Below are positions 19,306 to 64,000 of a DNA stretch of 64,000 bases, piece by piece. The DNA comes from Botryllus schlosseri. Lineage: Eukaryota. The translations under genes were made by a program, and so were the position numbers. The first letter of the stretch is position 1. Each line of letters starts with the position of its first letter. Location of the stretch: contig CM119371.1 in NCBI GenBank assembly GCA_051294905.1, positions 38,132,001-38,196,000 on the forward strand, read 5' to 3'. The notes under the pieces were generated by a model. That model did no database searches and had not been told where the DNA came from. It was given only the letters and a program-made list of their open reading frames with translations.

Positions 19306-20976
19306 CAGGGTTGTAACCAAGTCACATTGTTCCGAATCACGAGTCAATCTTACTTTTTTGGTTTTGACTCGAGTCAAGTCGAGTCATTTTCAATTCATCA
19401 CCGAGTCGAGTCCGAGTCCAAGTCACCGTTTAAAGGCTCAAGTCCGAGTCATGGTGCTATGACTCGAGTCGAGTCCAAGTCACAGTATTGAAGTCATGTT
19501 CAACTCATGTTTTCAATCCTGAATTAGCTTATACCTTATAGAGAATCAACGAATTCATTCTACATCTACATGCTATCTGATATAGAACCAACGAATTCAC
19601 GTCTAGATACCAGCTGATAGAGAATCAACAGATGCATGTTTATGTAGACGTACAGTTTTTCTTTCACATTGTCAGGTGGTTGACTGAAAAAAGGTCAGCT
19701 TTCCTGCTCAGCCCCGGAGCGTTACTAATATGAGAGGAAAGTTTGGATTAACTACAAATAGAGATTTTCGAATTTTATCGGCCACCTCATGATATTGTTA
19801 TATTGTGTAAAAATATGATTCATAGCAAATTTGGCTCAATTCCAACTAGAAAAAGCGAATTTATTAGAGTGGAATATTTTGGATATGAAAAAATAGTCGG
19901 CTTACTACTAGCATGTAATTATATTATATGAAATAATTTCTCACCAAAAACACTCCCTTTATTTTCAAATATAGAATTTTCTCCTTTCATATCATTGATT
20001 CTACTTTTTAAAATTAAGCCAGATTCAGTGTTTTTTTTATGCAACATAACAATTTTACCAAGTAGCCACCCAGTAAAATAAATAAGAAGTTATTTTTTCA
20101 GAACAACCCTATTGTAAAAAAATCACACAACATTAGGCATTCATTATTACTCACGTGCACAATGCACATACCTAACAAAACGTCAAATGGATGGAGTGTA
20201 TTGTGTGTTTTCACTGACAGCAGATCAAATCAATGATGAGTTACAATTCAAAAATACTAAAGTGGAAAGGAGATCCTCATATATGTTATAGCGGCATGAC
20301 CTTAGAATAAATCCACATCTACTGAAACACGTTCCGCTGGTGCACTAGATACAGGAATTGACAAGCATTTTTGAACCACATTGAAGAGCACTGGATACTC
20401 ATTATTTCTGATCGCCCAATAATGCAAAGAATCATCGCCTTCAAATCTACACATGAGCTTATCAGTCTCTTCCAAGTACTTGACCATCTGAGTCATTTCA
20501 TTGCCTCTAATTGAACTTTGCTTCGATTGCTCGCTTGTACAATTGAAAAGTATCGAGTACTTTTATTGCGGAGGATCTATTACCTCTTCATCACAGGATA
20601 ATTTTGTACAATGCTTTGCTCCTATATGTGCCATTGTCTGTTTATTTTACGGCGGCATATCTGATATCAGACGAGTGCAACGAAAGCAGTGGCGTCAAAT
20701 AGCGATATTGGCAGAATTCGTCATATGCGTTGATCTAGCCAGTACGATTCGCAAATTTCTTCATCTTCAAGTCATATAAAATGTGCCGAGTCAATGACTT
20801 GGGTCGAGTCACGCGTAATGACTCGAGTACAAGTCGAGTCAATCCAAATATTGACTCGAGTCGAGTCGAGTCATTTTCCATTTTCAAGAAAATGACTCGA
20901 GTCAAGTCGAGTCACCAAAAATTCGTGACTAGAGTCTGACTCGAGTCGAGTTATGACTCGAGTCATTACAACCCTG
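19306..20976 (-). mobile_element. Internally deleted hAT transposon of the GACTCGAGTC family with a transposase remnant
   Basis: Ends CAGGGTTGTAA..TTACAACCCTG; perfect TSD ggacctat; the minus-strand peptide at 20302-20496 (LHYW...YPVL...LSIPVSSAPAERVS) is the hAT C-terminal dimerisation motif. Confidence 0.9.
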
Positions 20977-24309: not shown

Positions 24310-24500
24310 AGCATATCGCTACAAGAATAGGCCTGAATAATCGCATCTACAACAGACCAGGTGCGCTTGATATCATCGCTGGCCTAAACAATCGCATCTA
24401 CAGTAGGCCTAGTGCGCACGATATAATCGTTGACCTGAGCAATCACATCTGCAATAGGCCCGGTGCGCAAGATATCGTCGCCGGCCTGAACTATCGCGCC
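24310..24500 (+). repeat. ~51-bp degenerate tandem repeat; inverted related copy at ~28840-29190
   Basis: Unit ggcctgaataatcgcatctacaacagaccaggtgcgcttgatatcatcgct repeated about 3.5 times. Confidence 0.75.
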
Positions 24501-24848: not shown

Positions 24849-25820
24849 CAGTGTTGGGATGACTCGAGTCATGACTTGACTCGAGTCCGACTCGAGTCAC
24901 CTTTTTCGCATGACTCGACTTGACTCGAGTCACTTGGCAAAAATGACTTGACTTGACTTGACTCGGCGCTTCAAAAATGCGGATTGACTCGTGACTCGAA
25001 GTAAATTTTACGAGTCAATTTCAAGTCATCAAGTAATCGGTGTCAATAAAAATCACTGTTTCTTGCATATGTTCGGATTGTTCGCGAAACGCTGACGTAA
25101 CCCGTAAGGGTGACCATTCAGTAAATAATGGTCGTGAGTTTTACTGAGAGTCCATTGTTCTCTCACAAATAAATTGACCGCAAACGAAGTGATCGAAGCT
25201 TACAGTTAACGTTATCTTAAACTAGTATAGTAAAGTAATTTAATAGCAAAATGTCTATTTCTGTTCTCTGTTCTTACCTTAACCAAACCACATGTTTTAT
25301 TGAAATTGAATTCGAATATAGTTTATATAGTTCTGAACCATTGGCGTAGGCTCGAATTGTATATGTATTTGTAAATGGGTAATGTATTGCATATTATCAA
25401 TTCGTTTCTCTATTCTCTATTTTGGCGGGTAACTATATAAACTGTGGCTAGGCAATTGCGTAGTTTACCAGTTCTACTTATATGTGAGTGATAAAGCGTC
25501 TTCTTGTGTGTATATTTAACTCTATATTCGCTCATCGGTTCGGAAACAATGACCACTCAAACTGTATTTCAGACTGCTAGCAAATTGCAATGACGTAATC
25601 ATGCCTCATAAATACTTCGAAAAGGCAACTTGACTTGAAATGTGACTTGACTCGTGACTTGACTTGACTTGACTCGACTTGACTCGAGTCACCTGCAAAA
25701 ATTGAGTGACTTGACTTGACTCGAGTCATCTTTGAAAATCGATCGACTTGACTTGAGTCAAAATGTGCAATGACTCGAAATGACTCGTGACTCGAAGGTA
25801 GTGACTTGATCCCAACACTG
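24849..25820. mobile_element. hAT MITE with GACTT/GACTC subterminal repeats
   Basis: TIR CAGTGTTGGGAT; perfect TSD ttatgtag. Confidence 0.92.
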
Positions 25821-26203: not shown

Positions 26204-26301
26204 GTAATTTGTTTAGGTCTTGTTATTTTCTTGGTCACGGCTATAGTGTATTGTGTGGTAGTTGTCCGAGGGGTGGTTTTTGGCGCTGGCTTTGCTCCCC
26301 G

Positions 26302-26360
26302 TTAGGTAAGACGTGTGAATTGCTTTGTTGTGATGGGTGGCGATACTGTCGTTGTCGCAT
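26302..26360 (-). CDS. Terminal coding exon ([19 protein letters not shown])
   Basis: gttaacag acceptor in phase 1, Thr-rich, TAA at 26304-26302. Confidence 0.75.
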
Positions 26361-29300
26361 CTGTTAACACAAGGTCGTTGTGAGCCTACCATATTTAAGA
26401 CAACATACGTCTACATATGCCTACATATCTGCCCTCAGACTTGGGCAACTGGACGATTCAAGTTGTCCGATTAGACTGGTAGAACGAAATGTTGGTGATC
26501 TCTAATTCTCAAAATACGGAAATGACTCGACTCGAGTCAATTGTGTATTGACTCGACTTGGACTCAAGTCATTGCGCATGACTCGGACCAAGTCATATGA
26601 CTCGAGACTCGGACGGTCAAGACCGACATTTCATTGTAATTTCGAAAAATAGTAATAGAGCCAGACTATTGGGATTTCGTCTATTGGTACTGGTACTTGA
26701 AAATGCGACCAGAAACTGCTTAAAGTGAGGAACATTATTATATTATAAATTCGAACCATTCGATATCACCAAACAGAGTTATAAAAAGTGGGTTTAACAA
26801 GACTTTAACTGGAAACTTAGCAGTCAACACAACGACTCGGACTCGGGTCATAATACCATGACTCGGACCCGACCCGCTGATCGCTGACTTGCACTCGGAC
26901 TTGACTCGGTGGTAAATTGAAAATGACTCGACTTAACTCAAGTCAAAACTATAAAATTGAGATTGACTTGTGACTCGGAGCCTTGTGACTTAATTAAAAC
27001 CCTGATATTGCAGAACTTAAATTTTACTGGGCATACCGTCAAATGTTCAATCATGTTTTTCTCTGTAAAATTTTGTTATATCGCTTCATTATCAACCAGA
27101 AAATTAGTATGAAATTATCCCCGTAAATGACTCACTCCTGGCGTTTTTGAAAGCCAACATCCAGATTTATATTTGGCTATGATTCTAATTCAAATATAAT
27201 TTGGAAAAAACTGTGTAGGTATGATTCTGGTTCTAATCTAATTTAAAAAACTGAGAATTTTTTAGTTGTTCAATACTGTTCGCAACTTCTTCTATGCACT
27301 TGATAAATGCCGTATCAAAGCAGCTATTGAACGTACACTCACCAGCAACAGGATCGGTCGATCCTGGCGCTGTTGTCTTCGTTAGCGCTGGCTTTGTCGT
27401 TTGTGGGGCTGGTGATGATTGAAGCGGTGGTGCCTTAGCGTTTGCCACACACGCCGTGCCCATTTTGGCGTCCGAGATTTTGATGTCGTCCAAGCCAAAG
27501 TCAGATTGGTAAAAATGCACGAATGCTTCCCAGTAGAATTGCACGAACTGTGGCATTAATGATAGCACGTAAGCAATTCCGAAAATCAGGTTAGGTACAC
27601 TCTAAACCAGGAAAGGTTTTGAGTGGCTCGCACGGTGATTTTTGAAATTAGATATACTCTCAAAAAATGAACTGCCTACGTAATATAGTGTGAGCTTACA
27701 AAGCCAACAAAAACTTTGAGTGGCCTGACCATAGCAATTTACGGCGTCGTTATGGTTATTTCCATGTCCTGATCTAAAAACTCGGAATGTGGATTACTAA
27801 CAGGGGACATCCGCAGGTTTTCTTAAATCTTTGTACATTAACATAAAGTATTTAGCGGTAGATTAATTTAATTTCATTTTTTTTCGCACTTTACGATGAT
27901 GTGCCTCTAGAATTCTTGTTTTTAGTATCCCTCCCGAAAAAAACAAACACATAATATACATCATTTAGTCAAACTACATGCGCATGTGTATCCACGTCGT
28001 TAAGGTAGTACAAAAATCACTCTTTTCGCTAGAAGTACGTTTCTTTCCTGGGCTTTTGTAACAGGCAGTTACGCCAATGTCAATGCATTAAATCAAATAC
28101 CTGGACATCGGGGGTCGGCTTGTAATCGTAGGACTGAAGATGCCATTTATCGCCATGGTTTCCGTGACGCTCCCACAGCAGAACTTCATGCCCGTACGGA
28201 CTCCATCTCCTGAAATAGAGACGTTATATCAGCACCCAGGCGCGTTGCCAGCCGGAAAATAAGGGGGGGTTGAAATAAAAGGGGGGGTTTCGATTCTTTT
28301 GGAATTTAGTAATATAGCATCAATTCATTATGGTTAATTACATGCGTAAATGCCGATTATACATCATCCTCGTGTTGACAATTACACGCGTACGATAAGC
28401 TTGCCGACGAGTCCGGAAGTGCTGTTAATTAGCGACTCCATGATCTGACGTGAACAATTAAATACGCCCGCCCGCTTATCAACGCGTCGAACAATTAAAT
28501 CCGCCCGCTTATCAATGCGTCTTACGTCTTATGTAGCCTCAGCGAACATTTGCACAAGTCAAAATGTATGAGTTTTTATCGAATATGTGCTATGATGACG
28601 CCGATTTCAGGTGGTTCATACCTTACCTCTTTTATAACTCAAGCCTTGACACAAAGCTTCTGATGGTTATGTTCAAGTAATAGCGGATATCAATTACGCA
28701 TGTACGCACGCGTCGCACATGTTTGCGGACATTCGGTGTCATTCAGTTTCGAGACGCCACTCTTTAATCACAATCGCTAATCAGCATATACTCAACGGCA
28801 TTTTATCCAAGCCATCGGGAAATAGGAGCCAAAGCATGGTAGGCCCGAGACGCTGCAGTTAGGCTAGCGATATCTTTCGTACTAGGCTATTGCAGATGCG
28901 ATTGTGTAGGCCAGCGATGATATCGTGCCCACCAAGCCAATGCAGATGTTGTAGGCTAGCGATGATATCATATCGTTCGCACCACGCTTATTGCAGATAT
29001 GATTCTTCAAGCCAGCGGAACTAGGCTTGTTGGAGACGTGATAAATCAGGCTAGCAACGATTGCCGAGCGCGCGGCAGCGAATGACCTAATTACGCAATC
29101 ATCTCAGCGGGAGATCATGCCGCGTTACATTGTGCAGTGCAATGCGCACAGGCGAATCTCGCAAATTGGCAACACGCCTTTCGTTAATTGGCCGCGCATA
29201 CGACTTATTGAATTGCAACTTAGTATTAGCGAACGGTCATTTGAAAAGGCCGGGGTTTCGCGTTTAAGGAGTGGGTTTCGACCCCCGAAACCCCCCCTGG

Positions 29301-32300
29301 CTACACGGCTGTCAGCACCCCTTTCGACGGCATTCTGTTGCGCACTCAAATTGAATTTGGAACACGACTTGAGCGAAATGATGTAATCCAATTCTAATCA
29401 TATTGTGAAAAGCTAAACATTTTCTACTTGTCCAACTCAGGCTGTGTCTCATCTGCAACAAGGCCCGCCACAGAGTTTCCATACAAGCTCACCTCTTTTC
29501 AAACGCGTACAACCTCAACGTTCCCATATATTGGCCGAGCATGTGGTATGCAAACTCTATGGTCACATGCGACTTCTTAAGCCATGGAGTACGGATGATT
29601 GCGTTATCTCCCATTTTCACAGGCAGGGATGACTCAACGTACATGTAATACCCTGAATCAGAGGAAATGACAGCGCAAGGTTAAACTTGAACTGCTCTGT
29701 CACGTAATCTCACCTTTCCCGGTGTTATAATCGCCGCTCGGCCCGGTGTCTGTGCTCGGTGTGGAGCCTTTGTATCGAATCCAGTCAGTCTGATCCAGCT
29801 TGTCTTGAGTCATTTGACAAATATCGGACTCGAAGTCGCACGAAAAGCACTTCGATCTTGAGGCGATCCGTGACAGCGTCGGTGCCCTGGGCTGCACCGT
29901 TAGTTTTCCTTTCCTGCTTGCTGAAAATCGGATATTGCTTCAAAAATGGCACTCAATCGTGCTGGAATGCGGAATTGGGAAACTAGATAATTCTAATTAT
30001 CTAAAAAGACTAATTAACAACGAACTGACGGTAATATAATCTGAGAAATCTTTCCACGCTATCCTTTCAATTCTAATGAAATTTCTGGTTTTCCTGAAAA
30101 TGCTGCAGAAGAGATTTACAGTGCGAAACAAGCCCAGCTTTTTGGTGTACGGACGTTTGACAATCTCATGCTTACTAAAACAAACTGTTATTTGACATGA
30201 ACTGAACTCAGGTAATGTTGCATTTCTTTCATATTCAGAATTTAATTCAATTTCCACGTTTTTTGCGAATTCCAATTCTAATCTCATTTAGAAAAAATGT
30301 GTAGCTATAATTATGCAGCTTATCAAATATGAAAAAGCTCCCCTACACGTGGACATCCCAGCTGTAACTTATTTACCGGGAGCCGCACAAAGTGTTCGGT
30401 TACTCACTCATTTTGAAAGTAGCCTTGAATCCGGTGTGCTTTCCGTCTTTGTTCGAGTCAGAAGTGAACATGACAAACACGGTGTTGCCGGTGCTTACAA
30501 TCTGTAAAAACACGATCAGGAATATCACAAATAAGTAGACCTGCATCAAAGTGTCCGGTGCCCGGTACAGTGAGAGATTTTAGTATCATCACTAGGGCTA
30601 GTTTTGGCAACTTTTTTTACAGCTTCCGGCAGGCGGCAGCCTTCTAAATAATCAGAGGTTACGTACTATCGTGTTTTATGCTGTTTGGAGGAATCTTATG
30701 TTGCAACGTTTCATGATTTTTCATGGAACTATTTTCGATATTTCATGCAGCTTTCTGTAAGTTTTTTTTTTTCAAATTTTCATGCAACTTGTTGCAACTT
30801 TTTTTTCCATTATTCACGCAAGTTCAATGATAGAAAGATAGGAAGGTGCCGAAACGACTTGGAGTAGTCTTTGAGATCAGACACCCACATGGGCCTAAGC
30901 GATGTAAAGAGGAGGCATACTCACTGAATAAAAAGTAAAGAAGATAGTATAAAACAACAAAATCAGGTGGCATGTGACGGAAGGCGTGATCGATGTCAGG
31001 TCGTAGTCCGGCACATGTTGAAGGCTGATACCTGATAGTATTCATTTAGTACAGTGGTTCCCAACCTTTTTGTCTTCATTCCCCGCTTCAGATTTATTCC
31101 GAGTGTTCATTCCCCACTACCCAAAACTCCTATATACTCTTTACAATAGAGTTACAGTATTTTGAGATCCTAAAAAGAGGCCACTTTTTATAAATTCTGA
31201 AAGCTCCAAGAAAACTGCTGATTTTGAAATTTTTTCGACCGATAGTATTGTATTGACTAAAAAAAAGTCATCAATTTGACTCGGCTCCCGATTTTTCGCG
31301 GAACTCTGATGTTCGCCGCGACGGAATCGCATTTTTTACGGCATTTAAATCCTTTTCAGAGAAAAAGAGGACAGTTCCCAAAAACAGAGGACATTTAGCC
31401 ATCCTCCGAGGACGCTTTCAATTTATAATTTTCTATACATACATTCCGGAGCAGTTATCTTGTAACGGTTATCGCGGATGTGTCTGTGTAAATATGTAGA
31501 CTATCCTGTATATAATGTTTAAAAAATGCGTCTATTCCCCACCAGAAACTATCGAATTCCCCGCCGGTTGGGAACTACTGATTTAGTAGAAATTGCTTGT
31601 ATTTCGACTTGAATGAGGACAGGACATGCTCGCCGACTGTCGGATAGCCGGCGAGATACTGTTCCACAATTCAGGTCCGGTATACTTGATAAAACGCATC
31701 GATCATATGATACTTGGACGACGAGGACGCAAGTGTGTTGTACTTATGTACTTTTGACACAGAGGCAAAGAAGTATTGGAAATTTTCGGGGCAGTGACCG
31801 CAATGGAACTGATACTTGGCAATCATCTAGTTTTTGCATATCTTTCATGTTTATGACATCGAATCTTTTGAGCGTTGATTAGTTAGATGCGGAGGACCTG
31901 ATGTTGAAGTTGTTGCAGTGGTTTGAGTGCGATAACTCTGGCAGCTCCCCAGCAGATGATACCATATTGTAGCTTCGATTGGAATAAGGATTTAGTGACC
32001 CAGCGCGGCATGGAGTGTCTAAGGCTGTAGAACAGACCACAGGTCCGACGACATTCACATTGAAATTAAACCAAATATTATCTGCTGACACTTGTCAGGG
32101 GTTATCGTCAGCAACTAGCAGAAAATGGAAAAGAACATTGTTACAGTAATGGCATAATAAACTTGAATATATTATCCAATCATATTGTATGTTCATTACA
32201 GACTAAAATGCTGGAGCAAATGGTTAGTGGTTCAAGTTTTGATGACTTTTGGAACAAAAATTGTAGTTTCCACGGTAATTTCCATTCTAGCAGCCTTGAA

Positions 32301-35300
32301 ACCAGACCGGTGGTGTCATAGCATAAAAGGTACATATTTCGACTTTCAATATCTATCACACCGTTCAGACGTCATATGAGTGATAAAAAGTTGCGATAAG
32401 GCACCAATTATTGTACTGTTGTTCATCAGCGTGAATCTTGACCCAACTCACCGTGGTCGTTTTTTTGTCAGTGCCACAGACAGCCTTTAGTCTCGGAGCA
32501 GCAGCGTTGTTTCCGTCGTGAACTAAGATCGCATCTTTTTGGCAAAGTTTAGAATCTGTAACGTACGAAAATATAGGTCTTGAGCGAGATGAACAATTGC
32601 ACAGTCCCTATACCAAACAAACTAGGACAACTAGATAATTTTCATTGTCTAACTTGACTAATTAGGGCGAAATTCCGGTCATTTAGTTTTAATCGAATTT
32701 GAGGAAGGCTTCTAGCTCTCATTCCAATTCTATTCTAATTTCTGGTTAACGAAAATTCTACAAAACTGTGTACTACGAAAAGAGTCTCAAGCTTGACCTA
32801 TAGATATCTACCTTTCCCTTGCTTATCAGAATCAGCTATTGAGTTGATATGGGCTGAGCTTGGTTTTATTGCATTTCTTCCTAATTCAAAATTAAATGCA
32901 ATATCCAAGTTTTTACGAATTACGAAAATTTACAAGTTATCCAACTTTACTACCAAATTGGCTCTAATAATTTCATTTGGAATCGTTCGAAAATCACCAT
33001 AACGCTAGCGATGTGATGATAGCAATAATGCTTGCCTTCAATGTCGAGATTGGTAATCACCAGCGAAACGTACGAGTTTTTCGGAACTGTGATATTCCAG
33101 GTGCAGTGGGCTTCTGTCGGGTACGGTTTCGGGAAATTTGGACTCGTGAACGTGCCGCTTCGGACGGCCTGGAAATCTCGACCGCAACGCTCGTAAGTCT
33201 TGTCAGCTGCGGAATGAAGACAATACATAGTTTGTAGATTAAGAGTTGTTCTGATTTATGAGAATTCAAAGCTTCCTTGTAGCACGAGGGTTAAGGATTT
33301 TGAAAATCTTTTATCCGCCAAAGAAGAACATGGGAAATAGGTCAGGGCTGGTGAACTCGCAAGCCGTTCCGACCTTATCTGTCTCAGTTTACGTAGTCTT
33401 TTAACAGGGTAATATCCAAAATAACTTTTTCTGCTTTTCGCAAATCAAGAGTGTAAATTCTCACTATGTTTTGCTCTACTTACAGCTGCCAGGGAGCGTT
33501 TTCCAACGCGAGCTCTGTAAAGAATAGATTTCTCATCTGTATGACCAGTGAAAACCGTTAAATCAAGAGCCAGACATTTAAAAAATCTCAATTCTACCCT
33601 AGAACAGAACAATAAATACATTTCGCTTCTTGCTTTTGCTGATACCGCATTTCATGATAGTTACAAAGGACCTAACCAGTTTTCAAGTTGTGTAACTGGA
33701 CGTTTTCTTAAAATAGTTGAGTAGTTCTGCAATAGGCTGTAATCCTAATTTGGTTTAAAGGTCGCAATCCAGCCTCTTTTTACCGATCAACAAACTGTTA
33801 GTTGCGAGGCTATCTTGCATAGAGCGAATTAATTCAGGGAACAGTTAATGATCACTCATATACCTTTTATGCGACCTCAAAGCATATAATGCCTGTTCTA
33901 AATCAATTTACAGATAATTTCTTATTTTTCCAACCATACCTACTTGATTTCACTTTAGTGACAATGCGGAGAGTTGATCGCGACTTCCGAGCGCCGGGTT
34001 CAAACCTTTAAATTGTTCGCGGGCTGCATCAGTTCACTATTTTAGTAGCCTACCTTCAGTCGCGAACAATGGAATCGTAAAAATACGATGACGGACCGGT
34101 CGAATGCATATGTAAACAGCGGCGGTAACGACAATATAATTTGACATGTTTCTATGCTCCCTTCCCTTTAGTCCTAATGTGGTGTTAGCCTTGTGTATGC
34201 GTTCTGAGGAATGCAAGAGATTCAGCTGTAAAATCACAATTCAGGTTTCACTTGATTTGACTGCGTGACCACAGATAATTGAATTAGATTTCTGTGTACC
34301 TAATATATTCTGCAACTGCATATAACGGTTTCGCATCGGTGTTTCGGCTTCTGTGAATATCTACCTTTGGCTCATTTTCCATAAAACTCTCAACTTAGAG
34401 TGCGCTTTTCCTTCTTGGGGGTGCCAATGACACCGATTTGTGCCTAGTGGGAACTAGAATGAAATCACGATACCGCAGTCAGGTGGTTATAATGTGGCCT
34501 ATGAACATACTCGACATTTGTAGTCTTGGGGGATGATTAACGGAAGTATTTCCATCAAAACATCTCAACATTCATTACAAATGTGTGAGCCGGATAATAT
34601 AGGCATTTTCCAATGAAATCAGAATTGCTTCGTGGGCCAGATAGAATCGTCTGACGGGCCGGATGCGGCCGGTATGTTTGACAACCCCGTTTCAAGGCTT
34701 TCGCAGTAGAAAATACTATCGGGACTTGATTACTTGATAACACCTGGATTAATTGTGTGGCTACTTATTTATAACAAGCATCTCAAGTAAGTGGATTCTA
34801 GGAAGGAAAATGGGATAGTGAATAGACAAGACAATCAGGCAGATGACAGTTTCCGTATTGGATAGTTTGTCCGTAAATGATAAAACTTCAGCTCTCAAAA
34901 GGCGGTTTCTCCAGAAAAGAAACGTAAACCAGGGGTGCACCATTCAACGTGCACAATCGAGATAATGAAGGTCAATAAAGTTAGTTACAACATTAATTCT
35001 TGTTATTCAAAGCATAGACACAAATTTACGCCCTCAAGATAAAATGATTGTGTGTCTTGAGCTGATGAAAACAATTCATTATGATTTATGATGTATTTGA
35101 ACTCGACATATCAAGATTTTTAATATGAGTATTTATAAGTAGGAACAGCGTGCGGGCATGAAATTATCTAATCATGGGTAAATAATCACTGAAAACTCAC
35201 CACAGTTGTACAGATATTTGACTTCTTCAATGTCATATGGGCTCATTCTTTGACTTTGGCCGATGTCCGGTTCAGGCCTACGTTTCGGCGTTATCTGCGG

Positions 35301-38300
35301 AAAGTCTGAGAGCTGTTTTATCGCATGCCTTGACGAAGCTCGAAGCTCTAAACCAGTGGTTTTTAACTTTTTCATATCGTTAGTAAAGTGTATCGATTTT
35401 TTGTGTAACACACGCACCTGAATGGTTGGTAGATACTTGAACTTTGAATAGGCATGTTTGCTATAGTGCATCAAGCTGTTGTAATCGTAGATGACCAAGT
35501 TTCTCGTGTTCTTGTGCACTTCGAAATTTGGCCACATATCTGAATGTCAAGGAAATGTCTGAGAAACTGCCGAACCAAAGCTACAGTCTGCTATTTACCG
35601 CTAAGAATGTTCTGTTTCAGGATGGTGACGTATTTGTCACGGTCACTTCTAGAATGTTCATGTAAAAATCCGAGTACGTGCATGAATTGGTGAGCGATTA
35701 TTCCTTTCGTGAGGCAGCCGGGCCTTCCCAAAGAAACTGTCTGAGCAGAGTAGCCCGTCTTGCCGACGTACGCCCAGCACCTGCAGAAATGAGCATCAGT
35801 GATTGAATGAAAACCGCATTCGTGAATTGAATGGTACTCGCGACAAGGCGTCTCTGGCATCGCAAGATTGAAACTACCATGACCAATAGGACAAAATAGT
35901 CCTGGTACCGTGTTTGAAAACTGCCAGTATTTGTAGTGTCATTATTCATTGACCGTCACTCGCGAAGAGTCTGGCAATCTCACAAGTAGGCACCTTTGAT
36001 AACTGCTAAATGTATGCGACCCCGCAGGTTTAGACTACTTGCGGTGATTGATACAGATCGTGGTCCAGTAATCTAGAACGTTCTATTATTCAGTAGAAAC
36101 TGAATTCAGCTACAGATACCGCTGTTGAGAAGTCTCGCGCACCCCGTTTTATCCGTGATGTAAATGTAGGATATTTCCGACTTGCCGGGCACAAATCTGA
36201 TGCAAGTGTGCCTGTGGAAAAGAGACATTGCGCTCTTTATGATCGCTCGCTCAGTGTTGTCTAAAACAGATGTAATACGGCTGTTTGCACGACGATGTTC
36301 TGATAGCGATCTCAACTCACTGTAATATTTGTTAATCTTGTAGGGAATCGGAACCATTCCGGCCAGGCTTCCAAATCTGCTTTTCGGCCAAGTGTCGCCA
36401 GCAGCGTTGCGGAACTGAAATCAAAAATGATTTTGAAAATTTGGTGATTACCATACGCCAACCATTATCGTGTGCGTCACGCAGGGCTGCGTTGTCGTGG
36501 AGTTGGGGTTTCGGTAAATTTTCTCTTGTTGTAGGAGGCCCAAAAAATTTGTAGCACTCCTCGGAGCCGGGGAAGCATACACTGGCTGGAGTTGGAGTCG
36601 AGTTTGTTAAAATGCTCCGACTAAATCGAACCAAATGTTACCAAAAAGTGCCGTTGCAACTAAAGAATTCCTCAAGTTTTTACGTCTTTGAACCACCACA
36701 AACTCAATTTCTCTCTGTAAGTACAGTTTTCATAATTTCTGTGAACCATACATGTCTAAAAAATGTAATGGAGGCATAATTTTCCGAGTAGATTTACAGG
36801 AATGCCAGAGTTGGAGTTCTGTGAAGAAAATATCAAGAGTTGAAGCTGGAGTCGATGAATTTAAAATTCCCGGAGTCGGTATCTTGGAAAAGTCTCGAGT
36901 CGGAGTCTGTGATAAAAGAAACCAGCTCCACTCCACAGTAGGGCTGTTTAAAAATAACTTTTTTTCCTGATTCCAGCCATTCACTGATTAAATTGTCAGG
37001 TTACCATAACAAAGGCTGCACACCAAATTTGGTTCAATTCTAACAAGTCTAAGCGTCCGCAGAGCCAATTAACAATTTCAATTTACTACGTAAAATAAAA
37101 CAAAAATTTCAAATTTTTCTGTCAACCCCATGAAATTGTCGAGTTGTCTTCAAAAAGGCTGCAAAACAAATTTGACTCAATTCCAATCCGTACAAGCGGA
37201 GTTATTGAGTTTTACGTTGATAATTCTCGGATTATCCACCGATCAAGCATAAGCCGAGAATTATCAACGAAAAACTCTAATAACCCCGCTTCTACTAATT
37301 GGAATTAAGTCAAATTCGGATTATGAATAAAATAGTATTTACGGTAGGCTTACCATACGTCCTCTTTTAAGAGGATTTGTCCTCTTTTTTGACTTTTTTG
37401 AAAGTGTCCTCGGAGGACGCCCTTTTGTCCTCTTTTTTGAGATTTTGTCCTCATTTTTGAAAATTTAGGTCAGATTTAGAGGAAATTGCGAGTGATATGC
37501 CGCAAATTAGCGCAAAAGTGGAGCTGCGGCGGGTATTTCGGAGGGAAAAGCGGTGATTTTAGCTTTTTTTAGCAATGTGGAGAGAAAAACGTTATTTTGA
37601 GCTCTGAGCGGAAGTGATGACCTTTTTTTTTTAGTCAACCGATCACGAAGTGGGAAAAATTTACCGGTTTTTGAGAATTCTTCTCCAGTTTTGCATGTCT
37701 GAAATTTCTGAAAAAGTGTCCTCTTTTTACATTTCCAAAATATGGTAAGCCTAATTTACGGTGACCAATTCTTTAATTATTTATGAAAGTGGTGCTCACC
37801 GTAAATACTATTTTATTCAAATCCAACTTTTTCGACGGCAATAACTCCGCTTCCACTGGTTGGAATTGAACCAAATTTGGTGAGCATCGTTTCTATAGGC
37901 AGCCTAACACTTTCACGGGGTGAACAGAAAATTTTCAAATTTTTTGTTATTTATTTTTATATAATAAATAGAAACTTTTTTCTCCTGTAGCAATGCGGCT
38001 ACTGGCTGGAATTGAACCAAATTCGGTGTGTAAGTTTAAATTAGGTAACCTAACAAATTTATCAAGTAGCCAGTACAATTTGAGAAAAAAAGTCATTTTT
38101 GAACACCCCTAATTCACATATGCCGTATTATTACCATACGACAGTGTTGTTATCGTTTCACTATATAGTCCTCATTAGGAGCAAGTCAGTGGTATTGAGA
38201 CCCATTCCCAAGAAGGCAAAAATGGCACATCAAGTTCAGAGTTTTACGGAAATGAGGAACAAAATGTAGTTATTCACAGAAGCGAAGACGCCAATGGGAA

Positions 38301-41300
38301 ACAATAATATGGCGGGTACATGGGGCCTAAAATATAGTTACACAAAATGGTCAGACTACGTTTGCAGTTGAATTTCCTGTATTCCTGATAACGTACACTC
38401 ATGGCTAACTCGAGATCAAAGGGAGCATTGAAATATGCCAACTCATATCATCGTTAGAGCTACTGTATTTAACCAGCCAATTACCGTATTCAGCCAATTA
38501 CGTTATTTACGGATAACGGTGTTGCTATAGATTAGAATCCCTATGATCCGACATATAATATTAGACTATCACTTCAGTTCAGTTTAATATTTAAAAGTAC
38601 TTTATACAGCTTCTGTTCTTGATGTTTTTGCGGCGTATAAACTAACTCACGAATCACGATATACATACACACGATCTGCGCATATGCGTATGCATACCAT
38701 GAGTGCATGAAGAGCATATGCCACCCAACAAGGTGCAGATATAGCCTTGTAAGGCTTTCAAAATTTTGCACTACCCCTCCATGCTATCCCGGAAATGCTG
38801 AGCTCCAAGCAGGGAAGTCACAGATACCAATTTGACTGATCAGGTCTTTGGTCTGACCCGGCCAAGGATTGAACCCACGACCGAGCGATCAAAAAGAGAG
38901 CTAGACTCTCCACCATTACGCTATCTCGTCGTAGTCATGTAGCCTACTAACAAGCTTGCATTATTTCGCAAGTGGTTCTGTTTTCAGACTACAATTCAAC
39001 TTGTTCTTCGCGGATTTTGGCGCATACCTGCTTACCTCTCACACTCTGCATTAAGAAATAGGAGGAAATAGTTTTGTGATAAGTCCGCATATGCTTTTGT
39101 GAATGAAACTGCCATAAGAATCGTGTGAAATATTCCCTGTATCACAACGATTGAATAATGAATTTATTATCGTGTATCTATTCTACAGTGAATATAGTCA
39201 TTGGCTGCTGGTAGCGGGGATTCATCCTGCAATTTTGAAAGTAGCCCCCCCCCCCCCCCCCGCCAATAAACTGCTGAAAGTATTCACACCCTCGATCAAT
39301 TCTACTATTTGAAACTACCTCCACTTGAAGTTATTCTGACGTGTTTTGGAAATTACTACTCCTGCTATAATTTACAGCATTACTTCTACTTGCGTAGCTA
39401 CACTGATTACTTGGATCACCTGTGGTTGGATAAATGCCAATACCGTTGTCACACACTTACAATATTGAAACGCATGTCTCCTTCGACGATGCCAGACACG
39501 CTGATGCCTGAAATCATAAACAGCAACGATTAGGGAAGGCATGAAAGAATTATTCCCTAGAGAGAATATAAACTGGCATTTTTCTGAGTAAAATTTAAAA
39601 CCGAGCCGCTCATTTTATCGCTGTCGACTTCAGCTGAAAAATCAGATGCTTGAATCAAACCAGTAAGCCAGTAATGTTGACAAAACGTCACACTATGACA
39701 CACTTTCAAACACACCAATCGTAGCATTCATAATGACACCTTCGTTTTCCTTTAATATCTGTGAAAATGTGTCCGTGGTTCGTAACTGATTGTGCTTCGA
39801 CAACTCTTCGGGGTTGTTCGGGTCGATAGGACGGCTTTCAAACACTTGCTGTCCGAACTCCTCAAAATGACGGATTTCGACAGTTCTGAAAGAAATGCTC
39901 GGCTTATTATTCATTCGGAGACTCCCTTGTTTGCTGCTGGTAACTCACATACACACACTCCTCACTCTAATGTTAGTATTAATGGTCTTTCCATTACACC
40001 ACGCCTAAATTCTGTACCAAGATTTATGAGCTGGCGACTTTTAAAACGGCCCATTTGTTTTCCATGCACAGGTGTATCATTGGTGTGCCATGCCTGAACA
40101 ATTTCCCAGCACTTGGTTGGCTAATTTCTCTCTCTTCGCCATCATATCTCCCTGAACTCTTTGTCAGCTTTCAATTTGTACTATCCTAATGCTTTGATTG
40201 TCAATGAATAATTATATCTATGTTTTTTTTTTTTATATTACGCGTGATCATATTAAGAGTGACAAAAATGAGTATATTATGAATCCGAGGCCTTCGATAT
40301 CACCCATGAGTTTCACTGACGTCAAGTGAACCCGACTTGAACAGTAAACACCATGACTTTGACTCGGGCTTAACTCATGAATCAAATATGACTTGACTCG
40401 AGTCTAAACTACAAATGAAAAATTGACTTGCGACTCGGACCCTTGTGACTTGGTTACAGCCCTGCTCTCTACCATTTTCCTTCTAGGACTTTGTAAGCGA
40501 CTGCTTATGCGGATCAAGGGTCAGAGAGGAGCGTAAATAAGCCTCGAGCTCAAGCAGGAAGTCAACTAGTTTTTTACCGATAGCCTACCCAATCATATAA
40601 TAAGGCCTGCGACGCTGCGAGGTAAAACGCTCGAAGGTTTTTATCGGTTAAATCGACTTTCCATTAATCGGTAGATATATTTCCACTGATTTTGGAAATA
40701 TATATCGTTTTGGCAGAAAATGCGTATTTTTCAAGATATTTTATCGCAGATTCCAGAAAAGAAATGCGATGTTGCAGCCTGTACCGCACATCATCGGTGT
40801 ATAGTAAACTATACTTCCGAGGTCCGATTGATATCATCAAATACTGACCACAATGTGGAAATTTGAAACACATTGCCAAATGTGAGCCAAAGCATTGATT
40901 ACTAATCCTGTTACAGACGCCCTCCAAGACTGAACAATTTCAAGGAATTGCGTTCAAACCCCATGAAAATGCTATTATATTCTTTATCGAATCTGATAAT
41001 CATGACTTAATCTTGAATATAGGCTGATTTGAAATTAACAACTGCGTTCATGGTTTACTGAATCAAACTGACTATATTCGTAGTCTGCAGAGTTTGCTTG
41101 GTCGTCTGTACATAGGCCTACTACTGGGCCTGGGGTATAGGAAAAGCCAATGTTTACCTACTTGACTAGTTTAGTCACTAATTAACTGTTTTAAGAAGAC
41201 TGCTAAGGGTTAAGGAAGCACACTCTCTGAATATTTGTATCATTAGCTTCCAAAAAGAAGCATACGTCAAAGTGGGTTTCAGGATAGTGTTTGGACCCAC

Positions 41301-43436
41301 TTAGGTAACGGCCAAAAAGAAGTCAGCCATCCCGGAGTTCTATATATCCCAGTACAGAAACTAAGGTTTCGTTGCATGCGTTCCCCATAAAAGAGTCTGA
41401 ACCCGTATGGAACAAGGCATGGGTTGATACGGTTAGGAGAACGAAAAAAGACTGGGTGAGAACGCGAGAAAAACCATCCGCCTTCTCTAGCTGTGTTTTG
41501 TGTTCCAGCCATTTTTAACAGGGATGCTTTGTGCCCATAAACGAATTTCACATGCAGACTGGTGTATTCATCAGAAGGAATATACAATGTGATCCTAACC
41601 TTGTAATTTTCTCCCAGTCTTCATCCTTCTCCTCAATTTCTTCTACGGTCTCCTCGTAGTCCTCAAACACTTGCCTGAAGTGGCTGATTGCGGCGTTCGA
41701 GCCAGTATTATTTTCGGGTTTTAGGATAGTCGCCTCTAGGTTGTTGTCGCGAATCATTTTCTGGTCGCCGTGACATCCTCCGAGCGGACACTCTTCCTCG
41801 TCTGAAAGTAACGGGCTTTTATGAAACCGTGGATCGGATTTAATAATAACGATATATGATTTAAATGTTTCTGCATGGGAATTTGTGTCAATCAACATTT
41901 CGGGAAATTTGCGACGAAAGCGATCAAACATTGATGCCAACAGTTGGACAGCCACAGGTGAACACTTGCCAAGTCACCAGTAAACCAATGAATAACTTGT
42001 GCTTATGCCTGAAATGTGATGTTCCATTATCAGAAAAGATTCGCTTTGTCATAAATATGACAGATAGTCCATAAAATAGCAATTGAACTTGGAAGACGCA
42101 TATCATAATATTTACCAATCATAAAATGCATAGTATGTGGACTGCAAAACGAATTATACTTGAATAAGAGCTATAAGGACAGTGCGGGTAGTAATTGCAG
42201 ATAGCACGGTGTTATTTCGTATAATCCTAATATAATGTGGTGACATAATTGAAGGCAATACTAGGCAACCAACATCACATCCACACCCACGGAGTGCGAG
42301 ATCACAGACAATTAACGAAAACTGCAGCCGTCTGCAAGCAATCATCAGCTGTCAAACCCATTGAAAAAAGACTCAAAACTGAACCTTGCTTAAAATCTTC
42401 ATCGAATACCAAACGCTCTCTCGAAGTGAGCTGGACTCAGCCTGTGCTCCGTTGAGCACGACTCGAGTGTGAGATCGAGGCGTGCCTCTGAATACTGACC
42501 TTTCACTCAAGTTGATGACAAAATGTATGTTTACGTATCATTGAAAGTGATTTTCCCGAGATAAGGCTTGCTGAAATATGTGTGCGTCGCTAATAACTCG
42601 TCCACAATGAAGTGCGATAATGCTGATTATTGGTGAACAAAGCGTATTATTGCATCTGCGGACTCGAGTGAGGTTTTAAGATGATAATTCAACGTATCAG
42701 CTCGCAATTTGCTCACCAAAGAATCTGTCGACTCTTTAAATTTTGGAGATGAGATTTTATTATGATATTCGCGAGTTTGGTATCAGTGCATAATGAATGT
42801 GCTGATCCTGCCACGTTATTATTGTTTTGTCAGACATGGAATGAAAAAAATCGAAGCTTTGCAGCGAAAGCTAATATTTCTTCTATTTTTCATTCGCAAA
42901 ATTCTACATACAGTTTTACTAGGCCTAGCCTATATATTAATCCATTTATTACTATTTATTTGTTTTTTTAATGTATTATTATCATGTTCCAATTTTTTTC
43001 AAACAAAATATTTTATCCAGTCGAGCATGAAATTTCAAGAGTAGTTGATATCGCATTCTTATACTTCCAAAAATCGCTTTCATTTATACTTTTGACAGAG
43101 TTTCCGATATTTTTAAGTCTTACCGTGTATTAAACCTAAAGTTGATAGGCTGCTACAAGCCACGGCCGGGGTAGGGTACAAAAAGTGATTAACTTACGAA
43201 TAGTATCGAAATACAACCATTGACGGAAAGTATTCATTTTAAAACATGTCAGCCCACATAAAGTTTATGACATAATTGGAATATTCATCATGAAATTCCC
43301 AAAGGCAGCGGCTAATACTATGAGAATCAACAGACGGAATAAAAAATGAACTTTTACCTTCAGCGAAGACTCCTGAAGCTGATAGTATTGCTACGATGCA
43401 TAGTGAATATAATATCCGCATCCGCATATCGAGCAT
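26302..43436 (-). CDS. Multi-exon astacin-family (M12A) metalloprotease-like gene: signal peptide, propeptide, astacin (E->Q), CUB, MAM, Thr/Pro-rich tail
   Basis: Phase-consistent spliced exons give [40 protein letters not shown] (Met-turn), then CUB ([21 protein letters not shown]) and MAM ([24 protein letters not shown]) motifs. The 5' junction and the astacin-CUB linker are not fully resolved. Confidence 0.9.
26505..27004 (-). mobile_element. hAT MITE, GACTCGAGTC family (reverse orientation, truncated)
   Basis: Reverse complement of the 21337-21934 element; ends AAACCCTG. Confidence 0.8.
27343..27547 (-). CDS. MAM end plus Thr/Pro-rich linker exon (FVQFYWEAF...GLDDIKI...[19 protein letters not shown])
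   Basis: ccacag acceptor and GTGAGT donor; LDDI.I MAM C-terminal motif. Confidence 0.88.
28101..28209 (-). CDS. MAM domain exon 3 ([36 protein letters not shown])
   Basis: tatttcag acceptor and GTATTT donor; LW...GN.GD.W MAM motif. Confidence 0.9.
28237..29311. mobile_element. hAT non-autonomous element in an astacin-gene intron
   Basis: Imperfect TIR CAGGCGCGTTGCCAG/CTGGCTACACGGCTG; perfect TSD tcagcacc. Confidence 0.85.
29493..29652 (-). CDS. MAM domain exon 2 ([53 protein letters not shown])
   Basis: gattcag acceptor and GTGAGC donor; GYYMYVES and F.YHM.G..G.L motifs; 61-nt upstream intron. Confidence 0.92.
29714..29920 (-). CDS. Linker plus MAM domain exon 1 (..[45 protein letters not shown])
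   Basis: attttcag acceptor and GTGAGA donor; MAM N-terminal motif. Confidence 0.92.
30408..30501 (-). CDS. CUB domain exon 3 ([31 protein letters not shown])
   Basis: tttttacag acceptor and GTGAGT donor; STGN..F.SD..GF.A.F CUB C-terminal motif. Confidence 0.9.
31052..31580. mobile_element. hAT MITE
   Basis: TIR CAGTGGTTCCCAACC; perfect TSD atttagta. Confidence 0.9.
32452..32555 (-). CDS. CUB domain exon 2 ([35 protein letters not shown])
   Basis: gttacag acceptor and GTGAGT donor; C..D...HDG...CG CUB motif. Confidence 0.9.
33036..33206 (-). CDS. CUB domain exon 1 ([56 protein letters not shown])
   Basis: Classic CUB N-terminal motif; ttccgcag acceptor; ends at a GC donor AAG|GCAAGC. Confidence 0.9.
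33484..33514 (-). CDS. Candidate 31-nt linker exon between astacin and CUB
   Basis: Strong tctttacag acceptor and GTAAGT donor, open in all three frames; phase requires an additional unidentified exon. Confidence 0.4.
35201..35294 (-). CDS. Astacin C-terminal exon ([31 protein letters not shown])
   Basis: ttccgcag acceptor and GTGAGT donor; IGQ...S..D....LY.C motif. Confidence 0.9.
35418..35539 (-). CDS. Astacin Met-turn exon (DMWPNF...[24 protein letters not shown])
   Basis: attcag acceptor and GTGCGT donor; YDYxSxMHY motif. Confidence 0.92.
35599..35780 (-). CDS. Astacin active-site exon (CWAYVGKTG...[30 protein letters not shown])
   Basis: ttctgcag acceptor and GTAAAT donor; astacin signature HExxHxxGFxHExxRxDRD with E replaced by Q. 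Confidence 0.95.
36143..36260 (-). CDS. Astacin exon ([40 protein letters not shown])
   Basis: ttttag acceptor, 60-nt upstream intron, TCIRF motif, phase-consistent. Confidence 0.9.
36321..36414 (-). CDS. Astacin exon ([31 protein letters not shown])
   Basis: gatttcag acceptor and GTGAGT donor; RNA activation site and WP...IPY motif. Confidence 0.9.
36939..38111. mobile_element. Foldback-type non-autonomous element with long degenerate inverted arms
   Basis: Ends TAGGGCTGTTTAAAAATAACTTTT / AAAAGTCATTTTTGAACACCCCTA; internal hairpins near 37170-37316 and 37322-37820. Confidence 0.6.
37345..37753. mobile_element. hAT MITE nested in the foldback element
   Basis: TIR TAGGCTTACCATA; perfect TSD atttacgg. 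Confidence 0.9.
38760..38928 (-). mobile_element. tRNA-derived SINE (Pol III A/B boxes)
   Basis: Minus strand has TAGCGTAATGG (A box) and GGTTCAATCC (B box) followed by GGCCGGGTCAGACCAAAGACC; the same core occurs near 55060-55105. Confidence 0.7.
39461..39507 (-). CDS. Astacin propeptide exon ([16 protein letters not shown])
   Basis: gatttcag acceptor and GTAAGT donor; conserved EGD (Asp-switch) propeptide motif. Confidence 0.85.
39740..39885 (-). CDS. Astacin propeptide exon (..[29 protein letters not shown])
   Basis: Acceptor tttctttcag; [10 protein letters not shown] resembles astacin prodomains; joins in phase 1 to the EGD exon. The donor GTGTCA is weak. Confidence 0.65.
43358..43436 (-). 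CDS. Probable first coding exon (signal peptide [26 protein letters not shown])
   Basis: ATG, basic n-region, hydrophobic core, VFA cleavage-like site, donor AG|GTAAAA. Its phase does not join directly to the 39885 exon, so a small exon is probably missing. Confidence 0.55.
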
Positions 43437-56710: not shown

Positions 56711-59019
56711 TAGGGTGGAGTGAAAATGACTTTTTTTTTCAAATCAAAAAAAGGCCTTCCTCAATCCTGACAAATGACCTAAAACTTCAATAAAAAGTGA
56801 CTTCAGGGTGTTGCCCCCATTTTCCAGCCGGCAACCCCCCAATTTCTGCGCGTGGGGGGGTAAAATGGCCCATCTCGGCAACCGCTGGTCGTAGAGTCAT
56901 GATATATAGCTCAAAATCTGCGGAAGCATCATGTTTCTATCTGTCTTAAGAAGAAAGTTTTCTCTATTGTGAACACAAAATGAGTTATAGCCAAAAAACA
57001 ATATATACGCACATTTTTGTTGAAATTCAGCATTTATTCTGACGAATTGTGATCTGTCATTAGTTTTTTTTTAAGAAAAGTAACACACTGACAATACCGA
57101 ATATTGGGCCCATATTACAAATATATTCACAACACAGTCCTTTTAAAATCGGTTCAAAACATCATAATGAAACACTTACATTTAACGACTTATTGAAAAT
57201 GCATTCTTTTGTCAAGTTTTGTCATCAGTTTACGAGACTTAATTTTTCGGCGAATGAGGCCATCTCGTCTTTGAAATCCCGAAACTTGTGCTGATGCTTC
57301 TGTTACGAGCTTTACATGTCGTTCCACTGTTTGATTGTGGCATGGATGAAACAAAATCAGAGGCTTCTCGCGGCATTCTTCCAAATCTGCATCAGTTAAG
57401 AACTCAATCGCTTGAGGAAGTTGTTGATATAAGGTTCAATATCAACCAACTCGTGGTATGCCTTTGCTTCCAAGTTCAACTTTGGGACACAGAATAAACG
57501 AACAGGACCGCAGTTCGATTGGTTGGAACTGCTATGATTCTCAATGTCAAGAAGTGAATTTTATTCAGCGGCATGTTTTCGAATCGCCAGCACCTTGGTC
57601 ACACCCAATTGGAAAAAAACTACGTGGAAGTGTATCTTGCTGGCCAGTTACTCAATTCAAAAAGCTCTCGCCACCACTTATGGCCTTTCCAAAGCTCCCA
57701 TCGGAAATTGTTGGTGACTTAAGGACCAGTTATATGCTTATAAATGTGCTGGGCAATTATTCAAGGAAATGCTGATGATGATCCGGCTTACTTGGAGGTT
57801 GGACCACCAGTTGCGCATTCAAGATGGCTAACAGGATGCAGTGCAGAGTTTTACGGTATTATGTAACAGTTGATGAACCGCCTTTGAACCTAGAGATTCT
57901 GGTTCGTTTTTGCCTTGAAGTATATTTTCCGACTTGGTTTGAGATCAAGGGAAACAAACATATAACACATGGACCCAGAAACATCTTCAACTTGATTCAA
58001 CAGGTTTTGAATTTCTCTGACCGAAACGTTCGAAAAATTACTTTGAATGTGGTGATAAGAAACGGTTATTCCGCACACCCCGAAAATATTATGATTGCAA
58101 TGCTGGTAGATGATAATGAAGACATACGAAATAAGGGTGTGACCAAGGTGCTTGCGTTTCGAAAACATGCCGCTGAATGAAATTCACTTGTGGATATTGA
58201 AAGTCATAACAGTTCCAACCAATTGAACTTGGGTCCTATTCGTTTATTCTGTGTCCCAAAGCCAAGGCATACCACGAGTTGGTTGATATTGAACCTTATC
58301 AACAACTTCCTCCAACGATTGAGCACTTAACTGATGCAGATTTGGAAGAATGCCGCGAGAAGCCTCTGATTTTGTTTCATCCATGTCACAATCAAACAGT
58401 GGAACGACATGTAAAGCTCGTAACAGAAGCATCAGCACAAGTTTCGGGATTTCAAAGACGAGATGGCCTCTCAATTGCCAAAAAATTAAGTCTCGTAAAC
58501 TGATGAAAAAATTTGACACAAAAATGCTTTTTCGATAAGCTGTTAAATGTGGGTGTTTCATTATGATGTTTTGAACTGATTTTAAAATGACTGTGTTATG
58601 AATATATTTGTATTATGGACCCAATATTCGGTATTGCCAGTGTGTTACTTTTAGTTTCAAAAAAACTGATGACAGATCACAATTCGTCAGAATAAATGCT
58701 GAATTTCAACAAAAATGTGCGTATATATTGTTTTTTTGGCTATAACTCATTTTGTGTTCACAATAGAGAAAACTTTCTTCTTAAGACAGATAGAAACATG
58801 ATGCTTCCGTAGATTTTGAGCTATATATCATGACTCTACGACCAGCGGTTGCCGAGATGGGCCATTTTACCCCCCCACGCGCAGAAATTGGGGGGTTGCC
58901 GGCTGGAAAATGGGGGCAACACCCTGAAGTCACTTTTTATTGAAGTTTTAGGTCATTTGTCAGGATTGAGGAAGGCCTTTTTTTTGATTTGAAAAAAAAG
59001 TCATTTTCACTCCACCCTA
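56711..59019. mobile_element. Palindromic hATm-type element: two inverted copies of the transposon 3' end plus a transposase fragment
   Basis: Arms 56711-57606 and 58135-59019; perfect TSD ccctacag; peptides HSRWLT, RVLRYYV..NGYSAHPENIMIAML and PCHNQTVERHVKLVTEAS. Confidence 0.92.
57607..58503 (+). pseudogene. Frameshifted hATm transposase C-terminal half
   Basis: Discontinuous ORFs 57824-58180 and 58279-58503 carry hATm motifs (AHPEN, PCH.Q.VER.VKLVTEAS). Confidence 0.85.
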
Positions 59020-63455: not shown

Positions 63456-64000
63456 TCAACGAACTTTTCTTTTGCATTTAGTTCCTCCTGGCTTGCTGCC
63501 ACTTCGTTTCGAAGGATTATGCGCCATCAATTGCCCATCAGTGGAGAGTGATAATGATTTAGGCAGCTTACAGGCTGTCGGGGCGGGAAAATTCATTAAC
63601 TGCTGAAATGAACGGTCTTGCTCGTCTTTTGGCATGTCGTCCCAATCCCAAGGAGATACCAAATACTTTTTACAATTCTCAGCAAGGGTAAAAGTACCAC
63701 GGCCTGTGATACTCTTTCGTACATCCAAGTATTGTGAAGTGATCGCTGATTTGAGTAGATTAATTAGATCTGGTAACTTTTTCTTTTTCCAATCTGTCAA
63801 TCGCTTGAGAACATGGTTCATGCTCTCGCAGTTGTTATTGGTGAACCATTTGTGCTCGGCGCCGATAAAGCTACGCATTTGCCAGACCTTTTTTCGCAAC
63901 AACGGTAGCAATCTATTTTGTAAGTATGTGACCAGCATTGGGCATATGCTATGGCACCTAGTGAGTAGGTCTTCTTCTCTTCGATTAAATTCAATTTCGT
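63456..64000 (-). mobile_element. MULE/MuDR-like transposase C-terminal part (continues beyond the window)
   Basis: 160-aa ORF with WFTNNNCESMNHVLK, the TNN.xES.N..LK catalytic-Glu motif of Mutator-like transposases. Confidence 0.65.

Follow-up and report, generated by a model that had tools for sequence, protein, structure and literature searches.

A spliced and probably truncated duplicate of a conserved tunicate astacin-CUB-MAM gene in Botryllus schlosseri may encode a secreted pseudoprotease

Does an astacin gene whose zinc motif carries glutamine in place of the general-base glutamate encode a pseudoprotease, a decaying remnant or a protease that still works? The question is raised by a gene on the minus strand of a 64-kb stretch of Botryllus schlosseri DNA, hereafter the window. 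Its zinc motif is read from 35692 to 35660, with a His codon (CAC, 35692-35690) followed by the Gln codon (CAA, 35689-35687), and a sequence-only reading had proposed from this substitution that the product is a secreted pseudoprotease. The explanation that we favor, to which we give about an even chance, is that the locus is a spliced, likely young, truncated duplicate of a conserved tunicate protease composed of astacin, CUB and five MAM domains, and that it likely encodes a secreted pseudoprotease.

The gene model comprises 17 exons on the minus strand, from 43436 to 26301, that form a single open frame of 730 codons separated by 15 GT-AG introns and one GC-AG intron. The product consists of a signal peptide, an acidic propeptide, an astacin domain (residues 161-361), a CUB domain (369-484), one MAM domain (511-672) and a Thr/Pro tail, the last 50 residues of which include 17 Ser/Thr and 9 Pro. 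Exon 1 (43358..43436, model) contains the start codon and the predicted signal peptide, whose hydrophobic residues 4-26 are the only such stretch of the product. The acidic propeptide is modelled in exon 2 (41600..41801), which is phase-compatible and by eye resembles the N-terminus of the Styela protein P0003. The propeptide continues in exon 3 (39740..39885, model), which aligns with the DPNDPEE..TF.KI stretch of the orthologs, and in exon 4 (39461..39507, model), which carries the EGD motif and whose 3' end corresponds to a loose end at 36415 in two contigs of run X19.

The astacin domain begins in exon 5 (36321..36414), placed by the model, tblastn and ortholog alignment, which also holds the activation site R|NAA. 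It continues through exon 6 (36143..36260; Cys209), modelled and joined to exon 7 in three of four runs, and through exon 7 (35599..35780), which bears the zinc motif and is backed by the model, Pfam and contigs. Exon 8 (35418..35539; model, Pfam and joints in runs) provides the Met-turn SLMHY with the zinc-binding Tyr. The domain ends in exon 9 (35201..35294), where ortholog alignment places GQS, with Ser344 (AGT, 35255-35253), opposite the GQR that supplies the S1' Arg. The CUB domain spans exon 10 (33036..33206; N-terminal half, Pfam), whose GC donor is seen in contigs as a joint ending in CT..GC, and exons 11 (32452..32555) and 12 (30408..30501; CUB end), both backed by tblastn, the model and joints. 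Exon 13 (29714..29920) encodes a linker and the MAM start, with a new Cys509, Cys512 and Cys519, and exon 14 (29493..29652) encodes MAM sequence in which a conserved Cys is replaced by Thr584; the model, joints, Pfam and alignment agree on both. The MAM domain continues in exon 15 (28101..28209; tblastn, model and joints) and ends in exon 16 (27343..27547; model and joints), where the Thr/Pro tail begins. The Thr-rich tail and the TAA stop lie in exon 17 (26301..26360, model); its start was recognized where one of the X19 contigs breaks off loosely at 27343. When six single exons were tested against Pfam, five scored above the cut-off for Astacin, CUB or MAM, while exon 16 had no match.

To follow the transcript, we aligned to 27250-36500 four of the 24 runs listed, each from a different study and none from the possible source. 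In three of them (X15, X16 and X19) contigs are spliced as the model predicts, GC donor included, and raw reads of X23 cross three exon joints with two reads each; ~6% of X23 was read, and its depth over the astacin exons is below 1. Contigs or reads thus back introns 4 and 6-16, the joint of intron 5 comes from the second copy described below, and introns 1-3 and the stop codon are those of the model. The transcript passes from exon 16 to exon 17, which holds the stop in the genome. X15 record 1 covers exons 6-16; between 27343 and 35776 it is as long as the model predicts (1444=1444). These spliced joints rule out an unexpressed locus.

Behind the stop, on the minus strand from 26300 to 24790, we observed Thr/Lys/Arg/Pro-rich frame remnants (26300-26190, 25960-25820 and ~24845-24790) with in-frame TAA stops. 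They are compositionally like the mucin-like linkers of the orthologs and may represent a decayed longer tail. The remnants are split by a MITE-like insertion (~25820-24850), which we take to be of the hAT type; its inverted ends are 12 bases long and its target duplication is 8 bases long. An AATAAA at 25301 sits within it, and relatives of the element occur at 26506-27004, at 40378-40464 and in several other places in the window. The window also contains a minus-strand fragment of a hAT transposase dimerisation domain at 20305-20562 (PF05699, E=8e-9), as well as transposase-like open frames recognized by eye at 57190-58610, which includes an inverted partial repeat, and at 63459-63998, neither of which has a Pfam match above the cut-off. 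Local duplications, seen as repeated translations in a six-frame scan, lie at 366-787 with 2217-2668 and at 7539-8291. A 51-base tandem repeat at 24330-24497 has an inverted relative at 28868-28970, inside intron 14.

The Gln codon is real and transcribed. Exon 7 matches the Pfam Astacin profile with E=4.8e-21, which excludes a chance match, and exons 7 and 8 both exceed the PF01400 cut-off. The codon CAA for Gln260 occupies the position of the general-base Glu of active astacin peptidases. Over 35599-35776, the only mismatch of the spliced X15 record 1, which comes from another study, falls at 35720 in a silent Pro codon, and therefore the X15 transcript carries CAA at 35689-35687 as well. 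This confirms the substitution first read from the genome and rules out a sequencing or assembly error as its source. The own-copy contigs of X16 and X19 each have one further, unplaced mismatch in exon 7, and Gln is presumed there; X15 is thus the one independent sample in which Gln is shown. DNA runs of the source sample contain 0.99-1.00 of the words of 35150-36450 and are not independent of the assembly.

Apart from this residue, the astacin domain retains the features of its family as defined in PMC9848320. The zinc ligands His 259, 263 and 269 are present, as are the family Glu270, RSDRD and SLMHY (Met313, Tyr315), the cysteines 209, 230, 251 and 361, the EGD motif at 151 and the activation site R|NAA at 160/161. 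The residues and motifs that had been described as intact (His ligands, RxDRD extension, Met-turn and Tyr, four Cys, EGD and RNA activation site) could be located. With a Pfam match, a domain of ~200 residues, the zinc His, ExxRxDRD, SxMHY, the Cys of two disulfides, a signal peptide and EGD, the protein belongs to the astacin (M12A) family. Four departures had gone unmentioned in the sequence-only reading: Arg344Ser, the loss of the conserved MAM Cys at position 584, a shifted last Cys in the MAM domain and a product shortened in comparison with the orthologs. In the MAM domain, the conserved Cys is lost to Thr584, the last Cys comes four residues later, at 676, and Cys509 is new. The codons of these changes lie at 29849-29847, 29563-29561 and 27451-27449, and it is possible that the rearranged cysteines re-pair in disulfides.

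What does the substitution do to catalysis? Astacins require this Glu as their general base (PMC9848320), and the same Glu-to-Gln change in an astacin, BMP1 E214Q, leaves LDLR uncleaved (PMC6684651). Furthermore, the S1' Arg/Lys (GQR/K), a typical but not obligatory feature, is absent from the window protein. As described in PMC3186203, >80% of 765 astacins have Arg or Lys at this site, a residue that sets the preference for acidic P1'; crayfish astacin and LAST do not favor acidic P1', yet are active. Among the astacins that we retrieved, Arg was found in 69 of 78 GQx motifs and was missing from nine. Because Glu is the general base, E214Q abolishes cleavage by BMP1 and the S1' Arg is also gone, proteolysis has likely been lost, as judged from sequence. 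The earlier proposal that the change is inactivating is therefore matched by a laboratory precedent and joined by a second active-site change, Ser344. A literature search returned no data on astacin E93Q.

To place the gene, we compared it with tunicate proteins that a search with exon 7 matched at 78-84% identity. Three of them, from Styela clava (XP_039262787), Clavelina lepadiformis (CAK8675733) and Ciona intestinalis (XP_026691427), have the same domain order as the window protein and share with it 66-73% identity in astacin (73% for Styela), 51-61% in CUB and 57-60% in MAM1. The Styela, Clavelina and Ciona orthologs are 1,646-1,841 residues long and consist by Pfam of astacin, CUB and five MAM domains, with HE and GQR at the active site, whereas the window protein, of 730 residues, combines HQ and GQS with a single MAM; one further unnamed relative has six MAM stretches. 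In trees of astacin-CUB-MAM1, the tunicate clade was separated from five outgroup astacins with 100/100 support and the window protein was sister to Styela with 100/99, a placement from which the host would likely be a stolidobranch ascidian. The window protein thus belongs by sequence to a tunicate astacin-CUB-5xMAM orthogroup. The window gene lacks the five MAMs and the C-terminal Cys-rich end of this orthogroup and has a single MAM locus, and tblastn found no second astacin exon or further MAM exon in the 64-kb window, including 27 kb downstream. Conservation of Gln among orthologs, which the sequence-only reading had suggested checking, was not found: all 25 tunicate-clade records have Glu at this position (at least 66% identity; ~12 sequence groups, isoforms included), and since none carries Gln, the substitution is lineage-specific. 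GQR is likewise kept in all 16 tunicate-clade records that cover the site, and P0189, a vertebrate-type fragment outside the set of 25, also has HE. Ciona apparently possesses a pair of nearly identical genes, whose astacin domains agree at 88%.

The order astacin-CUB-MAM-mucin had been thought distinctive. The orthologs rule this out: the same order makes up the N-terminal third of the gene conserved in Styela, Clavelina and Ciona, and the architecture is therefore not new. Public tunicate orthologs (P0003, P0005, P0006 and P0199) carry the automatic name 'MAM and LDL-receptor class A domain-containing protein-like', and Pfam found neither an LDL-A repeat in the three tunicate orthologs scanned nor a MATH domain. 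The window protein is distinct from meprin, tolloid and the ascidian Tast (PMC4545420, PMC1867822, PMC11673157). Meprin combines MAM with MATH/TRAF and a transmembrane segment (PMC4545420), whereas the window protein has no hydrophobic segment beyond the signal peptide. BMP1/tolloid has five CUB and two EGF domains (PMC9848320), in contrast to one CUB followed by MAM, and the TSP1 repeats and type II anchor of Tast (PMC11673157) are absent. Hatching enzymes share astacin and CUB with the window protein, and CUBMAM_BUGNE of Bugula, named in PMC9848320, is an astacin with both CUB and MAM. No paper on the function of tunicate astacin-CUB-5xMAM proteins was found in literature outside subscription journals. 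The available text of PMC8191133, PMC4398375 and PMC12817120 contains nothing on the gene, and the ESM Atlas returned only generic astacin-MAM or astacin-CUB clusters, below 0.9.

Where, then, is the full-length gene of this species? Runs X15, X16 and X19 contain a diverged, spliced second sequence; its five displayed pieces amount to 647 bases, of which 69 differ from the window (~89% identity), compared with 20 of 1152 bases for the own copy in X15 record 1. X16 record 3, of 4958 letters, aligns only by its end over exons 13-15, and we infer that the longer copy extends ~4.5 kb past MAM1, a length fitting further MAM domains. The alignment of the longer copy within exon 16 ends at 27474, where a loose end of X19 departs from the window and reads by eye ISKTKPC, with the last MAM Cys near its usual place. 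At the joint of exons 6 and 7, a contig of depth 177 encodes TDAKGC as in Styela, while the window encodes TDKTGC. The longer copy has Styela-like residues wherever it can be read, the displayed pieces lying outside the catalytic residue. Contig depth, a poor measure, is of similar magnitude for the two copies in all three contig runs. Because the second copy is longer and Styela-like at the sites read, the window gene appears to be the truncated, derived duplicate and the other its full-length parent, and we consider it likely that this duplicate is young. No protein more than 85% identical to exon 7 was found in three protein searches and one representative search; therefore, neither copy from this species was retrieved.

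The gene thus combines what is expected of a pseudopeptidase: a catalytic residue is lost, the fold residues are kept and the gene is expressed. If our favored explanation holds, the protein would be secreted and its propeptide removed at R160|N161. The zinc domain would fold and bind zinc but, being unable to activate water, would not cleave. The dead cleft and the CUB and MAM modules could then occupy substrates or partners of the longer, co-expressed copy, for which the short protein would act as a competitive decoy or adaptor, the glycosylatable Thr/Pro tail serving as a spacer. With the S1' Arg lost, the cleft would no longer hold acidic P1' substrates in the usual way, so that binding may rest on CUB and MAM. 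Data on the gene include nothing specific to gametes, matrix or immunity, and name no tissue or target. In a bolder version that we consider unlikely, partial duplication would have created a natural decoy whose dead astacin domain traps substrates of the putatively active parent, or pairs with it and damps it. In this version the CUB exon would diverge from one individual to the next and present a polymorphic surface for recognition in self/non-self or gamete encounters.

The strongest rival, which we hold to be less likely than not, is that this duplicate, although transcribed, has recently ceased to function and is now in decay; Gln260, Ser344, the truncation and the missing MAM Cys would then be lesions tolerated beside the longer copy. 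The existence of that copy is itself consistent with decay, as are the truncation, the lost conserved MAM Cys and the broken Thr-rich remnants, with their in-frame stops and MITE, after the stop codon. The evolutionary rate points the same way: pooled private changes number 30 in the window protein and 18 in Styela (p=0.083), with branch lengths of 0.56 and 0.30. In the astacin domain, however, private changes (10 vs 6 in Styela, chi2 1.0) show no acceleration, and all zinc, Met-turn and astacin and CUB Cys residues are retained. Splicing was seen in all four runs aligned, and frame and splice sites are whole over 17 exons although the two copies have diverged by ~10.7%. If half of this change (5.3%) accrued neutrally here, ~4.7 nonsense changes would be expected and the chance of none is 0.009, a chance that falls further with an assumed indel rate; under that assumption, the frame has therefore been under selection for most of its history. 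The chance that the frame stayed intact since the allele split (~0.5-1%) is 0.14-0.64, so that a more recent loss of function is compatible with it.

Variation between samples is not uniform, which also argues against simple decay. Compared with X15, exons 7-8 are near-invariant (2 of 300 bases), in contrast to CUB exon 10 (11 of 171, p=0.0004), and all other displayed exons differ at 9 of 981 bases (p=3e-5 for the contrast with exon 10). Exon 10 (33036-33206), the GC donor of which is confirmed by RNA, is a variation hot spot against X16 as well (10 of 153). Eight exonic variants fall among 40 of 375 variant rows, a small and filtered sample, and five of the eight lie in CUB. Seven of the eight are non-synonymous (P=0.36 under neutrality, 0.023 at omega 0.3 and 0.0015 at omega 0.15), and several replace the residue shared with orthologs (P by S469, A by V565, K by N434), both of which favor decay. 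Relaxed constraint, diversifying selection acting on CUB and gene conversion by the parental copy could each account for the high share of non-synonymous variants. Signs of purifying selection are therefore mixed, with an intact frame and near-invariant astacin exons set against the seven non-synonymous variants. The sequence-only reading had held up an unexpressed locus with relaxed constraint as the mark of a decaying pseudogene: the first part fails on the spliced joints, and the second is partly borne out by the variants, with the frame and the astacin exons against it.

We judge it distinctly improbable that a single locus accounts for both sequences as its alleles, or that Gln is a segregating null allele of an active short protease. 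The longer copy is known from contigs rather than from a genomic map position, the own-copy contigs of X16 and X19 each have a second, unplaced mismatch in exon 7, and the samples may be pooled. Against allelism, both forms occur together in all three contig runs, from three studies, and are ~11% apart with different 3' ends, and further MAM exons are absent from the 27 kb downstream. Gln is present in both the window and X15, and no variant at 35689 was found among 40 of 375 variant rows, a weak argument. Finally, a slow or re-specified protease that retains activity through Gln or its deamidation, with a neutral S1' preference due to Ser344, is very unlikely given uncleaved LDLR with BMP1 E214Q (PMC6684651) and the general-base role of Glu (PMC9848320), even though the activation site, zinc ligands and Tyr switch are whole, nine of 78 GQx motifs lack Arg, and crayfish astacin and LAST are active without an acidic P1' preference (PMC3186203).

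Our favored explanation, a secreted pseudoprotease encoded by a truncated duplicate, has a known parallel in ADAM7, an M12B pseudopeptidase of the metzincin clan whose motif HQLGHNLGMQHD likewise replaces Glu by Gln and keeps three His (PMC11266112). Many ADAMs are pseudopeptidases according to Tables 1-2 of that paper; its main text uses the word astacin once, not for a pseudoenzyme, and no astacin pseudopeptidase is listed in the passages available. In contrast to the window gene, which encodes a secreted M12A astacin and is likely a recent duplicate, ADAMs are membrane-bound adamalysins with disintegrin domains encoded by old mammalian genes. BMP1 E214Q carries the same substitution and is inactive, but it is a laboratory mutant with the CUB/EGF architecture of tolloid (PMC6684651). 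Among 180 of 187 retrieved astacin proteins, a set biased by the Gln-bearing query, 10 of 232 zinc motifs have no Glu and two of these are HQ; astacin domains that lack the Glu are no rarity among sequences. The HQ domains of P0076 and P0095 are unannotated, share 45% and 57% identity over exon 7 and are no close relatives; in P0076, unlike in the window protein, the HQ domain is paired with an HE domain in one chain. Six unnamed proteins (P0076, P0110, P0090, P0112, P0115 and P0159) have two astacin-like stretches with one or both motifs lacking Glu (HQ, HL or HH), possibly a recurrent tandem design of an active and a dead domain. That natural inactive forms may exist among pipefish, seahorse or platyfish astacins is a further lead. 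The main text of PMC3853555, PMC5168715 and PMC8127814 did not confirm it, and their supplements may bear on it. Pseudopeptidases are thus well known among ADAMs, while a characterised astacin case, that is a natural astacin pseudoprotease with a described function, was not found in a literature search that reached a minority of subscription journals.

If the short copy is merely decaying, it is of little importance. The analysis nevertheless brings to notice the conserved astacin-CUB-5xMAM gene of tunicates, which appears in databases under a wrong, MALRD-like name. Furthermore, a young pair formed by a long copy and a short Gln copy, ~89% identical and co-expressed, would offer a natural test of how pseudoenzymes originate and bears on whether a pseudoenzyme is retained as a regulator or lost.
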